From Promethearchaeota archaeon (GTDB lineage Archaea > Asgardarchaeota > Lokiarchaeia > Sigyniarchaeales > SOKP01): DNA of 32,000 nucleotides. Below, one piece after another: positions 4,030 through 8,275 of the stretch; the first letter of the stretch is position 1; the number at the start of each line of letters is the position of its first letter. Where the stretch lies: the NCBI GenBank assembly GCA_030606485.1, contig JAUWGH010000004.1:300001-332000 (forward strand), written 5' to 3'. The position numbers were made by a program, and so were the translations under genes. A model generated the notes under the pieces. It was not told where the DNA came from. It saw only the letters and a program-made list of their open reading frames with translations, and did not search any database.

Positions 4030-6810
4030 TTATTCTAAAATTAGAACAGGTTTTCCAGGTAATGCTTGTTTAGCTTTTTTATGGTCAATTTGATCTTCTA
4101 AAAATATTTCAATATTACATTTAAACTTATCCTGAAAAGTTGGTTTTATTTCATTAAAAAAGTCCATTTCATCTTTTGATGTTAGGACTATTTTTGAATA
4201 TGTCCTAAGATTTTGTAAAATATTATTGGTGATTTGATTTATTTGTTTCCCAAATTTTTTCAATTCAGCGTCCTGCATAACTGATTTCATAATTTCTCCT
4301 TGATCTTTAGATTTTTCAATCAATGGTATTAATATAGAAAACAATTTGTATTTCCATTCGGTTGCAATTACAATTTTAATCAAAGAAATTTTTTGATCCT
4401 TTAAAATTTGTATTATATTTTTTACATCATCTATTGTGTTGTTCATTAAATTCCATTTAAAATCGTTTTCATCTGTTAGTAGATTTTTGTTATAGGATGG
4501 CCAAGTAGATATACTTAAGAAATCTTTATGACCAAGCATTTCCCATAATTCTTCTGTTATGTGTGGTATAAATGGATGTAAGAGCAGAAGCAATTTTTCT
4601 TGACATTCTTTATAGAGATGTTCAATAACACCATTTTTTTTATATTCTTTCAAATTTGGAATGAATTGAACAATTTCATTTATAGCATCACGTATTGCTA
4701 GATTATTCATATGCTCTGTAACAAATTTTATAGTCTTATTCAATTGGAATTCTATTAAATCGTCATTAATATTCCTTTTTTTCCTTATTTTCTCTAGAGA
4801 CTCTGTAAATAAATTCCATAAACCAGATACAAATTTATATGCAAAACCAACTCCTTGATCAGACCATTCCATTCCTTTCTCTGGACTTGCTCCGAATAAA
4901 ATGAAAAATCTAGTTGCATCTGCCCCATATTCATTCATAATTCCAATTGGATCAACGGTATTTCCTAGAGATTTGCTCATCTTAGCGCTTTTTAGAATAT
5001 ATTTCGTTCCACATCGTTTACATCTCTCATCATGCATTTCTGCTTTCATCGCAAAGGTATTACATTTTGAACAATATGGATGTGCTTTATTAATCATACC
5101 ATGTGTAAATAATCGTTGAAAGGGTTCATCATGTGAATGTAGCCCAAGATCACGCGCTACTTTTGTAAAAAATCTTGCATAAAGAAGATGCATAATTGCA
5201 TGTTCTATTCCACCAATATATTGATCAACATTTCCCCAATAATCAACAATTTCCTTTCTATATGGTAAATCTTTTACATGAGGATCACAGAATCTAAAAA
5301 AATACCACGAACTATCAACAAAAGTATCCATTGTATCAGTCTCACGCCTCCCTGGTTTACCACATTTTGGACATTGACAATTAATGAAAGATTCAGAAGT
5401 TTCTAAAGGGTTTCCTTTTCCAGTAAATTTAACATCTTTTGGTAGTTCTAATGGTAAATTCTCATAAGGAACAGGCACAACTCCGCAATCATCGCAATAT
5501 ATTATTGGTATTGGGCATCCCCAATATCTTTGACGGGAAATTAACCAATCCCTTAACTTATAATTAACGGTTGCTTTACCCAGCCCAATTTTTTCTAACT
5601 TTTTTGTTATCGCGTTAATCGCGGTTCGATTATCCATCCCATCAAATTCTTCTGAATTTACTAGGATGCCATCTGCCATATAAGCTCTTGTCATTTTATC
5701 CTCATTTAATTCATAATCAGGTGGTTGAATAACAACTCTAATCGTGATATTATATTCTTTTGCAAATTCAAAATCACGTTGGTCATGAGCAGGAACCGCC
5801 ATGACTGCACCTGCCCCGTATTCATAAATGATAAAATTTCCAATATAAATAGGAACTTTTTCTTTTGTCATTGGATTAATCGCATATTTTCCGATAAACA
5901 TCCCTTTTTTATCAACCTCAACATCCGTTCTTTCAAATTTATTCTGCTTCATAACATCAGTATAAAAAATTTCAAAATCTTTTTCATATTCAGTTCCTTT
6001 AACCCATTCGCGAACCCAAGGATGTTCTGGAGCAAATACCATAAAAGTTACTCCATAAAGTGTATCAGCTCTAGTTGTAAATATGTCGATGGTTCTTTCT
6101 TCTCCCACAATTGGGAATTTAATTATCGACCCCTCCGACCTCCCGATCCAATTTCTTTGCATAACTTTAACTTTTTCGGGCCAATCAACATTATTTAAGC
6201 CATTTAACAATTCTTCGGCATAAGATCTTATTTTTAAAAACCATTGGGTCAAAAATTTTTGTTCTACTTCTGAATTGCAACGCCAACAGTGACCACCTTG
6301 AACTTGCTCGTTAGCCAACACTGTTGCACATTGAGGGCACCAATTAATATAACTATCTTCCCGATAAGCAAGATCTTTTTCAAACATTTTCAGAAAAAAC
6401 CACTGGTCCCATTTAAAATAATTTGGATCGTGGCTATGAATGTCACGAGTCCAATCATAAGATAATCCTATGCGTTTTTGTTGATTTCTCACGATATCGA
6501 TGTTTAAATTGGTCCATTCCTCCGGATTCACTCCCTCGTCAATTGCGGCGTTTTCTGCAGGTAATCCGAAAGAATCATATCCCATGGGATAAAGTATTTG
6601 GAATCCGCACATTCGTTTGAATCTAGTAAATGCATCGCCAACAGTATAATTACGTAGATGACCTATGTGAAGTTTTCCAGAGGGATAAGGATACATTTCG
6701 AGTATATAATACTTTTTCTTTTTAAGATCTTTTTGTACTTCGAATATTTTTGCTTCTTCCCATTTCTTTTGCCATTTCTCTTCTATTTTTTGGGGGTTAT
6801 AATCATTCAT
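4030..6810 (-). CDS. leuS: Leucine--tRNA ligase, bacterial-type core with archaeal-type C-terminal domain
   Basis: LEMYPYPSGKLHIGH (HIGH), GYDSFGLPAENAAI, CP1 editing TTRADT and AVPAHDQRD, DWLISRQRYWG, YIGGIEHAIMHLLYARF, KMSKS, C-terminal ALPGKPVLILE. AGGA lies 4-7 nt before the ATG. Confidence 0.97.
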   Translation of the reverse strand: MNDYNPQKIEEKWQKKWEEAKIFEVQKDLKKKKYYILEMYPYPSGKLHIGHLRNYTVGDAFTRFKRMCGFQILYPMGYDSFGLPAENAAIDEGVNPEEWTNLNIDIVRNQQKRIGLSYDWTRDIHSHDPNYFKWDQWFFLKMFEKDLAYREDSYINWCPQCATVLANEQVQGGHCWRCNSEVEQKFLTQWFLKIRSYAEELLNGLNNVDWPEKVKVMQRNWIGRSEGSIIKFPIVGEERTIDIFTTRADTLYGVTFMVFAPEHPWVREWVKGTEYEKDFEIFYTDVMKQNKFERTDVEVDKKGMFIGKYAINPMTKEKVPIYIGNFIIYEYGAGAVMAVPAHDQRDFEFAKEYNITIRVVIQPPDYELNEDKMTRAYMADGILVNSEEFDGMDNRTAINAITKKLEKIGLGKATVNYKLRDWLISRQRYWGCPIPIIYCDDCGVVPVPYENLPLELPKDVKFTGKGNPLETSESFINCQCPKCGKPGRRETDTMDTFVDSSWYFFRFCDPHVKDLPYRKEIVDYWGNVDQYIGGIEHAIMHLLYARFFTKVARDLGLHSHDEPFQRLFTHGMINKAHPYCSKCNTFAMKAEMHDERCKRCGTKYILKSAKMSKSLGNTVDPIGIMNEYGADATRFFILFGASPEKGMEWSDQGVGFAYKFVSGLWNLFTESLEKIRKKRNINDDLIEFQLNKTIKFVTEHMNNLAIRDAINEIVQFIPNLKEYKKNGVIEHLYKECQEKLLLLLHPFIPHITEELWEMLGHKDFLSISTWPSYNKNLLTDENDFKWNLMNNTIDDVKNIIQILKDQKISLIKIVIATEWKYKLFSILIPLIEKSKDQGEIMKSVMQDAELKKFGKQINQITNNILQNLRTYSKIVLTSKDEMDFFNEIKPTFQDKFKCNIEIFLEDQIDHKKAKQALPGKPVLILE

Positions 6811-6894
6811 ATTTCCTTTTATTCCATTCCATTGTTTTTATTAAAATTATCCACATTTTTTCAATTTTATGAATTCTTTTTTTCAATGCTTCTT

Positions 6895-7018
6895 CGAACC
6901 TTTGAGCTTTAATTCTAAAGATATTTGCTGGAGATTAAGAAAGAACAAATCCATAGAAATTATTTATAGAAAAGAAGGCTCAGGTTCGTTCTCTCTCGAA
7001 TTAGAGCACCAATAAGAG
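6895..7018 (-). promoter_or_regulatory. Structured 5' leader of leuS with mutually exclusive helices (candidate attenuator)
   Basis: Hairpin 7018-6993; helix 6988-6978 with 6907-6895; competing helix 6997-6983 with 6952-6937; U-rich tracts at 6977-6968 and 6949-6937. All paired by hand. Confidence 0.65.
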
Positions 7019-7081
7019 TACCACTACTAAGAGTAATACAAATAACAATGCATTTTGTACTTTATTCATCAAGAGAGACAT
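7001..7081 (-). CDS. Putative leucine-rich leader peptide of leuS (MSLLMNKVQNALLFVLLLVVVLLLVL); alternative start at 7069
   Basis: ATG at 7081 and TAA at 7003-7001. 11 of 26 codons are Leu and 6 are Val; the last 15 codons are 9 Leu, 5 Val and 1 Phe. Same strand as leuS, ending 190 nt before its ATG. Confidence 0.7.
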   Translation of the reverse strand: MSLLMNKVQNALLFVLLLVVVLLLVL

Positions 7082-7104
7082 TATGGTAAATATTATAATT
7101 ACTA

Positions 7105-7112
7105 CTTTTAAA
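7105..7112 (-). promoter_or_regulatory. Putative TATA box for the leader-leuS transcript
   Basis: TTTAAAAG on the minus strand, ending 24 nt before the leader ATG, which is the canonical archaeal spacing for a start site at or next to the ATG. The region is very AT-rich, so chance matches are possible. Confidence 0.45.
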
Positions 7113-7276
7113 GATTATTATAAGATTTATAGGAAATTTATAAATTTAAATTAAATTAAGAGATATTTTTTGAAATTTTCGATGAGGATAATATTAAGAA
7201 GGAGTTTAACCATAATTTTTTCATTTACTTTATATTATTTTTAAATTAACATAATTATTTAATTTTAAAATATTCT

Positions 7277-8275
7277 ATGACGATTGGGAAAATTAGAGTT
7301 TCTATTGGTAGCGCCACGATTTTAGGATTTACTTCCATAAAACTCGAGAGTCCACCTACTACGATTTATATTATGACTTATAAGAAAGGAAAATGCATTG
7401 CAAATTGCGGTTTTTGTCCTCAAGCGAGAAATTCAAACAGTCCAAATGAAAAATTATCGCGAATCAACTGGCCGATTTTTCCTTTTAAGGATTTTTTAAC
7501 CAAATTGAAATATACTGCTTCTTTAAAAAAATTTCAGAGAATTTGTATTCAAACACTTAATTATGCCGAGAATTTGCAAGACTTAATTGAAATTATATCT
7601 GAGATTAGAAAAGTTACCAATATACCAATATCTGTGGCAATTCCTCCAATGTCTAAAGAAAGTTTAAGGGATTTAAAATTGTGTGGAGTACAAAGAGTAG
7701 GAATAGCATTGGATGGCGCAACACAAGAAATTTTCGAAAAAATTAAGGGAATAGGAGTTAATGGTCCGTATTTTTGGCGTTCTCACTTTGATAGTTTAAG
7801 AGATGCTTTAGATGTTTTTGGAAATGGACTTGTAAGCACTCATATAATAATTGGTTTTGGTGAGACCCAGAAAGAAACATTAAATTTAATTACAGAATTG
7901 CATAAGTTTTCTATTTTACCCGGGTTATTTGCATTTACTCCTATTGAAGGGACAAAATTTGAAAATATGATCCAGCCAAACATTAGTCACTTTAGAAAAA
8001 TACAATTAGGTAGATATCTTCTCATTAATGATTACAAGAAATTAGATGATTTTACATTTAATCAAAAAGGAGATATTATATATTTTAATTTAAATAAAAA
8101 AGAATTAAGAAATTTTGTTGATGAGAGTGAGGCCTTCAGGACTACAGGATGTCCGGGTTGCAATCGTCCTTATTATACTTCTAAACCTTCAGGACCAATC
8201 TATAATTATCCACGAAATTTAAATGAAAATGAGAAAGAAGAAATATATAAATTACTAGAGAGATTAGTAAATTAA
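7277..8275 (+). CDS. lipS2: Radical SAM lipoyl synthase subunit LipS2
   Basis: CIANCGFC (CX3CX2C) plus TTGCPGCNRP, matching the TxGCPxC(N/D)RP motif; adjacent to a lipoate ligase gene. The S1/S2 motif assignment is from my recollection of the literature. Confidence 0.85.
   Translation: MTIGKIRVSIGSATILGFTSIKLESPPTTIYIMTYKKGKCIANCGFCPQARNSNSPNEKLSRINWPIFPFKDFLTKLKYTASLKKFQRICIQTLNYAENLQDLIEIISEIRKVTNIPISVAIPPMSKESLRDLKLCGVQRVGIALDGATQEIFEKIKGIGVNGPYFWRSHFDSLRDALDVFGNGLVSTHIIIGFGETQKETLNLITELHKFSILPGLFAFTPIEGTKFENMIQPNISHFRKIQLGRYLLINDYKKLDDFTFNQKGDIIYFNLNKKELRNFVDESEAFRTTGCPGCNRPYYTSKPSGPIYNYPRNLNENEKEEIYKLLERLVN

Follow-up and report, generated by a model that had tools for sequence, protein, structure and literature searches.

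The window analysed here, a stretch of 32,000 nt (positions 300001-332000 of contig C2 in genome G000), carries leuS (4030-6810), the gene for a 926-aa leucyl-tRNA synthetase with a bacterial-type editing domain. The small-subunit rRNA of this genome scores 776 bits with the archaeal model vs 606 bits with the bacterial model. All coordinates given below for the leader and leuS refer to the minus strand. Between leuS and a divergent radical-SAM gene there is an intergenic region of 466 nt (6811-7276), and within it lies a short leader ORF, MSLLMNKVQNALLFVLLLVVVLLLVL (7001-7081), which consists of 26 codons and a stop (7003-7001). Twelve of the codons are for Leu and six for Val, and such codons reach up to the stop. 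The TATA-like box TTTAAAAG (7102-7109) is found 21-28 nt 5' of the leader ATG, and AATCTTTAAA(A/T) is kept at the same place both in genus g1, to which the window's genome belongs, and in relatives from genus g11. Since the box is only 21-28 nt away from the start codon, the leader transcript is probably leaderless or nearly so. Genome-wide, TATA-like motifs show a peak at -35 to -26 from start codons. Another such motif, TTTTAATAAAAA (6835-6846), occupies positions -36 to -25 relative to the leuS ATG, so leuS may own a proximal promoter; G008 and G027 share the motif, and G019 has a similar one. It lies within the A-rich spacer of 84 nt (6811-6894) that reaches the leuS ATG and is near-identical in G008. 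A 17-codon upstream ORF (MWIILIKTMEWNKRKYE, 6803-6856), the stop of which overlaps leuS codons 2-3, is probably not functional because its ATG is missing in G019. Four g1 genomes have the leader (G000, G027, G019 and G008), and among them the sequence from the leader through the leuS ATG is conserved, the sequence 5' of the promoter having diverged. Rfam gave no family at the gathering score across the 32-kb window. At E<=10 it gave no leader family within 6500-7600, only chance-level hits, and none of the covariance models for Leu_leader (RF00512), T-box or other curated leaders matched at the leader.

The RNA of the leader can be divided into segments that compete for each other. Segment 1 (UCUCUCUUGA, 7069-7078) is part of the ORF and holds Leu codons 3-4. 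Segment 2 (6983-6999) starts 1 nt past the stop codon. Segment 3 is a pyrimidine tract, UUUGUUCUUUCUU (6937-6949), referred to as tract 2, and segment 4 (GCUCAAAGGUUCG, 6895-6907) immediately precedes the A-rich spacer. The central player is segment 2, which is shared by three helices. In helix A its part 2a (6999-6990) pairs with segment 1, the isolated duplex having an energy of -15.1 kcal/mol. In helix C tract 2 becomes the 3' strand (6997-6985/6949-6937, extended by 6984-6983/6952-6951), and in helix B part 2b (6988-6982) pairs with 6901-6895 of segment 4, together with 6981-6978/6907-6904. A second pyrimidine tract, tract 1 (CUUCUUUUCU, 6968-6977), the longest run of which is the U4 at 6973-6970, lies in the loop of helix C. 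Helices A, C and B share 6999-6982, where mutually exclusive pairings compete, and a ribosome halted on the stop codon would mask segment 2, which begins only 1 nt further on, as in ribosome-mediated attenuators.

Folding the window's leader yields two alternatives. Fold I combines helices A (7078-7069/6999-6990) and B and has the minimum free energy (-44.7 kcal/mol); in it tract 1 is partly paired (6971-6967/6917-6913) in an extension of helix B, and tract 2 is mostly exposed in the loop of a small hairpin D (6953-6950/6932-6929). Fold II is helix C (-35.9 kcal/mol for the full length), with tract 2 fully paired and tract 1 inside the 35-nt loop. The first-pass annotation, which had placed both pyrimidine tracts inside the switch and had them paired differently in the two folds, is confirmed in this respect by both sequence and folding. 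In the unmasked RNA the combination of A and B is favoured by about 9 kcal/mol, and when the first 30 nt are masked, to mimic a ribosome near the beginning of the ORF, the energies of the B and C states become nearly equal (-33.1 vs -32.2 kcal/mol). Simulation of the nascent RNA gave tract 2 a pairing with segment 2 of at least 82%, the exceptions being a ribosome over the stop region or one stalled mid-ORF, and at equilibrium of nascent folding helix C forms even without any ribosome. Start-site accessibility at leuS is predicted to be about the same in both states (0.59 vs 0.66), and the window's leuS has no clear Shine-Dalgarno. Masking of the leuS start was rejected on these grounds, and a translational output is not indicated at this locus.

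Neither fold ends in a hairpin followed by a U-run; instead, the oligo-U sits between the switch strands. Helix B, the long helix, ends at G6895 and continues into AAGAAGCAUUGAAAAAAAG, an A-rich sequence and not a U-run, just as originally described. The broader claim that this leader lacks a terminator of the bacterial style also holds: a hairpin with a U-run within 0-2 nt is absent, since helix B is followed by AAGAAGCAUUG and helix A ends 16 nt before the U4 in G000 and G027 or 13 nt before a U7 in G008 and G019. In genus g11, helix A ends 7 nt before a U7 run in most members. We also considered a U-run after helix B as the ancestral terminator. This was rejected, since no conserved U-run follows this last helix in the family and T5 is present there in only about 4 of 50 members.

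The number of members comes from a survey of the leader element. Among 30 leuS loci of the family, the ORF occurs only in loci of the own genus. A DNA search detected the four orthologous leaders mentioned above and also a 75%-identical leader in genus g11, positioned ahead of a 49-61-aa ORF with a strong Shine-Dalgarno. A covariance model constructed from those 13 sequences matched in 49 of 135 family genomes, and 50 elements were fetched and aligned. The weaker matches represent true diverged members having the same order of parts, and every one of the 50 has a homologous Leu/Val/Ile-rich ORF. Leu predominates in the leaders linked to leuS outside genus g1. The leader ORF has the abundance of cognate codons that characterizes a ribosome-mediated leader-peptide attenuator. 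As for the genes downstream, leuS follows the element in 17 members (two paralogous leuS types), about 27 members precede small ORFs without Pfam matches, and four or five precede a FrhB/FdhB-like gene, one full-length copy of which was scanned and also has a TrmB domain. A search with strict filters over 19 genomes from the order's three other families did not find the element. According to a broader model (R2), it is single-copy in each g1 genome, and nhmmer detected no paralogues of the leader in the own genome. Two small-ORF scans of the same genome yielded nothing beyond noise and a duplicated region, unrelated to the leader, upstream of two surface-protein genes.

Covariation among the 13 close homologues is uninformative, as they are too conserved. 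In the 50-member alignment, helix C shows changes on both sides in 12 of its 15 pairs and has 70 compensatory cells vs 19.9±3.5 in shuffled alignments (0 of 500 reach 70) and 3-19 in slid controls, although the alignment itself was fitted to helix C, all 50 members are kin and the 18 best-scoring hits (genera g1 and g11) differ very little among themselves. Helix B, scored as a duplex, has more pairing potential than shuffled controls (z<-2) in 45 of 50 members (mean z -4.1), and the middle part of the helix shows compensating changes. In most subfamilies the oligo-U pairs with a conserved A-run (GAAAAAG) in this helix.

How do the two tracts fare in such a comparison? The sequence of tract 2 is quite different in other subfamilies (for example, GUUUGCUUG) and changes together with its partner, so tract 2 is not a U-signal. 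By contrast, the tract 1 position holds U5-U10 in 47 of 50 members, the only conserved oligo-U, and it is inside the switch. In most members this run starts 20-27 nt past the leader stop (+20 to +27) and ends 25-31 nt from it, and the helix C loop measures 35 nt. At least two U4 tracts (two or three of U4 or longer) are found in this loop in 34 of 50 members, including G008. For comparison, 35-nt background windows of this genome (29% G+C) contain U4 in 41-45% and U5 in 20-24% of cases, and at least two U4 tracts in 11-13%, a share that rises to 21% directly downstream of gene stops. Together with its flanking bases, the run exists in only 11 variants among the 50 members, CUUUUUC accounting for 24 of them, whereas the 9 nt immediately 5' to it, which belong to the same strand of helix B, come in 34 variants, with an entropy of 1.6-1.9 bits at 7 of 9 positions. 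Moreover, the oligo-U persists in the GAUC subfamily, in which helix B pairs mainly via other bases. Because the run is near-invariant while the neighbouring helix B bases vary freely, the oligo-U is kept for more than pairing.

The window's own copy is a poor representative of this signal. Within g1, G008 and G019 have U7 at the tract 1 position and G000 and G027 have UUCUUUUCU. Tract 1 of the window is thus a decayed copy of the family oligo-U, with a single U4 and no U5. Since G000 and G027 lost the U7 kept by the other two genomes, this copy may terminate poorly. Its UUUU (6973-6970) does supply the one U4 that is the least expected of an archaeal U-tract, but not above chance when taken alone. 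With only this U4 in its loop, the window remains below the element of two U4 tracts within at least 18 nt (PMC8716108). Likewise, at least two pyrimidine tracts of at least 9 nt occur in 12% of 270-nt upstream regions. Taken alone, the window's tracts are no better than chance, and their significance comes from comparison with 49 related leaders. Thus, of the archaeal-style U-rich tracts proposed in the first-pass annotation, the tract 1 position stands, as oligo-U is found there in 47 of 50 members, even though the window's version has decayed to U4; tract 2 does not, being a covarying helix strand.

The machinery that could read such a signal is encoded in the genome. Its aCPSF1/FttA is a full protein of 635 aa (TIGR03675, 892.7 bits vs a cut-off of 580) with KH_TffA, KH_2, MBL, beta-CASP and RMMBL domains. 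Runs of at least seven T occur in the 60 nt after long ORFs in 18% of cases vs 8% before them, and runs of at least four within 60 nt (71% of gene ends vs 63% of gene starts) do not separate the two. A nearby upstream hairpin accompanies 28% of gene-end T-runs vs 29% of random T-runs. Because gene-end T-runs show no excess of hairpins, termination signals here look hairpin-independent, as in other archaea. aCPSF1 binds U-tracts through its KH domains. An efficient site takes a minimum of two U4 tracts within at least 18 nt, and the more tracts there are, the higher the efficacy of termination, from a median of 43% for one tract to 52-55% for two or more (PMC8716108). The same dependence on the number of U4 tracts has been reported for a Lokiarchaeal aCPSF1 in M. 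maripaludis, for which a complemented strain exists (PMC8716108). FttA receives its RNA directly as it leaves the exit channel, nt -20 to -25 being positioned in the active centre, and steric exclusion between FttA and a coupled ribosome has been proposed (PMC11616081).

The best explanation for region 6999-6895 is that it constitutes the expression platform of a ribosome-sensing leader. Our main reading, to which we assign a probability of about 0.4, is attenuation by premature termination of the archaeal type in the U-rich stretch, gated by the availability of the post-stop segment for capturing tract 2. The output would be hairpin-independent premature termination at about 6973-6930, at oligo-U, probably with the help of aCPSF1/FttA. 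When Leu-tRNA is plentiful, the ribosome would reach the stop and cover segment 2, and after its release segment 1 would take segment 2. The RNA from tract 1 through tract 2 would then emerge single-stranded and U-rich, and the uncoupled polymerase would be terminated (the OFF state). If the ribosome instead stalls at upstream Leu codons, the first of which are in segment 1, segment 2 would be left free to capture tract 2 once it is made. Helix C formed in this way would remove the single strand behind the polymerase, allowing transcription into leuS (the ON state). Helix B would form later, burying the U-run in finished transcripts. The direction of the switch is argued from physiology (homeostasis) rather than read from the sequence: with leuS under the element in 17 of 50 members, a switch that turned OFF on stalling would put an essential synthetase under positive feedback, and stalling should therefore mean ON. 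The OFF state would depend on kinetics and on the dwell of the ribosome at the stop, because at equilibrium helix C forms without a ribosome. In addition, FttA could load on the U-tracts in either state before tract 2 leaves the polymerase. It is tempting to speculate, though only tentatively, that this is a factor-dependent platform without a terminator hairpin, in which ribosome position either exposes the U-rich nascent strand (the oligo-U and segment 3) to aCPSF1/FttA or folds it into helix C. Equally tentatively, such a platform would be a counterpart of Rho-dependent attenuation that relies on the CPSF73-type, eukaryote-like termination machinery of an Asgard archaeon.

Several other explanations have to be weighed against this one. 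The oligo-U might be a programmed pause or simply a part of helix B, with the switch acting after transcription through mRNA stability, processing or translation. We consider this unlikely, yet far from negligible. The pairing of the U-run with the conserved GAAAAAG in most subfamilies fits it well, as does the fact that U5 would make a modest terminator. In members with small ORFs, a strong GGAGGUG Shine-Dalgarno is found 20-35 nt past segment 4, and in one subfamily CACCUC, complementary to GGAGGUG, comes right after segment 4. There is also a precedent for translational attenuation by leaderless short ORFs (10.1101/834739). However, pairing in helix B does not account for an invariant U-run amid bases that covary freely, and in the window the absence of a clear Shine-Dalgarno at leuS, the similar accessibility of its start in both states and the 84 nt between the end of helix B and the start codon all speak against a post-transcriptional output. 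Rather improbable, in our opinion, is intrinsic termination at the oligo-U that needs neither FttA nor helix C and is gated by the ribosome or by helix A. This explanation comes in two versions: a ribosome at or near the stop makes contact with the polymerase at the U-run, or helix A assists pausing or termination. The former version draws on the spacing of 25-31 nt from the stop to the end of the run in most members, which is about the ribosome-polymerase contact distance in bacterial expressome structures. The latter finds support in g11, with helix A ending 7 nt before U7, but in the window the corresponding distance, to the U4 run, is 16 nt. Nascent-RNA folds also place the end of a local hairpin 0-2 nt before the oligo-U in 22 of 50 members. 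Nonetheless, this proportion (44%) is not clearly above chance, compared with 29% for random T5-7 runs and 28% for gene-end T-runs, and it was not counted as evidence for a bacterial-like hairpin directly before the oligo-U. Both versions, furthermore, leave the covariation-supported helices C and B without a role.

The two remaining explanations concern the window itself. The terminator might have decayed in this genome, leuS being transcribed mainly from the proximal promoter (6846-6835) and the upstream unit persisting as a relic or as a separate gene for a small hydrophobic peptide. Only one U4 is left in G000 and G027, the TATA-like box is at the canonical position for this genome (-35 to -26), and the module has probably been transplanted, given that its closest relatives, those in g11, precede the 49-61-aa ORF and not leuS. 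On the other hand, chance alone puts a TATA-like motif there in 16-21% of genes, the window copy retains helices A, B and C intact, and conservation in the four g1 genomes extends from the leader to the leuS ATG and not upstream of the promoter. The peptide, too, is made up nearly entirely of Leu and Val, even though in this genome codons for Ile, Phe, Asn and Lys would come more cheaply. On balance, decay of this kind seems quite unlikely. Still less can be said for the possibility that the tracts are compositional noise of an AT-rich genome, which appears already disfavoured by the comparative data and which we regard as very improbable. It is true that U4 is found in 41-45% of 35-nt windows and that runs of at least four T do not distinguish gene ends from gene starts, but noise would hardly be expected to place U5-U10 at the tract 1 position in 47 of 50 relatives or to let tract 2 covary with its partner.

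If the main reading, premature termination of the archaeal type gated by the post-stop segment, is taken as a guide, the leader can be compared with several known systems. Ribosome-mediated attenuators of bacteria include E. coli pheM-pheST and leuL/ilvL/ivbL (Rfam Leu_leader RF00512). As in these, a short ORF rich in cognate codons precedes a synthetase or pathway gene, the post-stop segment can pair backwards or forwards (1:2 vs 2:3), a ribosome at the stop masks segment 2, and the ribosome-free ground state is a fold of the 1:2 type. Unlike these, the leuS leader has no G+C-rich hairpin abutting a U-run; its only family-conserved oligo-U is located between segments 2 and 3 and is paired within helix B rather than placed after it. 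Further differences are the leaderless transcript, the archaeal polymerase and the lack of an Rfam match. Rho-dependent attenuation with leader ORFs or switches is known from tnaC and from the mgtA and corA leaders. There, as proposed here, ribosome position or RNA folds hide or expose the single-stranded loading zone of a factor. However, the factor here would be a beta-CASP nuclease and not the Rho helicase. The U-tract terminators of aCPSF1/FttA in M. maripaludis and T. kodakarensis (PMC8716108, PMC7515710, PMC11616081) resemble the family's signal in having tracts of U4 or longer, usually two within about 20-25 nt, with no need for a hairpin. The factor gene is present in this genome, and a Lokiarchaeal aCPSF1 reads U-tracts in M. 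maripaludis. Yet gene ends and operon interiors are where such terminators have been described; none is reported from a 5' leader under a leader peptide, and the window copy has a single U4. Finally, in mycobacteria leaderless short ORFs with poly-Cys let a stalled ribosome unmask a ribosome-binding site, thereby controlling downstream translation (10.1101/834739). The likeness consists in a leaderless sensory ORF ending in a run of one amino acid and in a stalled ribosome that remodels the RNA downstream; the difference is that no masking of the start site is predicted at leuS.

In our literature search, we found no paper on leader-peptide attenuation in archaea and none on a U-tract terminator embedded in a leader-peptide switch. 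In its putative sensor the leader resembles a bacterial leader-peptide attenuator, and the one terminator-like signal that it contains belongs to the archaeal U-tract class. What is new here is the anatomy of the output region. How a leader switch in archaea could signal to a polymerase that ignores terminator hairpins finds a concrete, testable answer in the oligo-U, conserved as it is at one set position between the strands of the switch. As the window site has decayed, the U7 copies of the sister genomes or the g11 copies are better test objects.

Other members of the family show features of their own. In g11 (L067:1660-1815; L064-L076), the conserved 49-61-aa ORF behind the leader has the motif EIDWAKYLDYT...EPAEINN, a strong GGAGGUGA Shine-Dalgarno and no Pfam match, and it is followed by an amidohydrolase gene about 360 nt downstream of the switch. 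Ile/Val-rich leaders precede the FrhB/FdhB-like iron-sulphur protein in L083 (1675-3114) and also in L088, L092 and L111; in L083 this protein is fused to a TrmB-type domain and has no obvious link to branched-chain amino acids. In L082, L087, L093, L096, L100, L106 and L113, GGCACCUCAG directly follows segment 4, just past the covariance-model match. It is complementary to the GGAGGUG Shine-Dalgarno of a small ORF about 20 nt downstream, possibly a translational layer on the same switch. In some of the diverged members (L094, L101, L105, L109 and others), the N-terminal codons M-I-S-N-N-T (AAUAAUACU...) are conserved and form the reverse complement of the run of Val/Leu codons GUAGUAUUAUU, so the leader ORF folds back on itself.

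Two observations concern synthetases and leaders more generally. Many family genomes have two LeuRS paralogues, one of the bacterial type and one of about 965 aa, and each can carry its own Leu-rich leader of this RNA family (G025:C6:1142987-1143098, G043:C265:205-316, L090, L091 and others). In the window's genome, contig C12 contains on its minus strand a candidate Phe leader, MGVVFSLASLFFI, with a 9-bp hairpin (CCCAAGAGA/UCUCUUGGG) right after the stop. This hairpin has a U4 in its loop and AGUUUU after it, a layout unlike that of the leuS leader.
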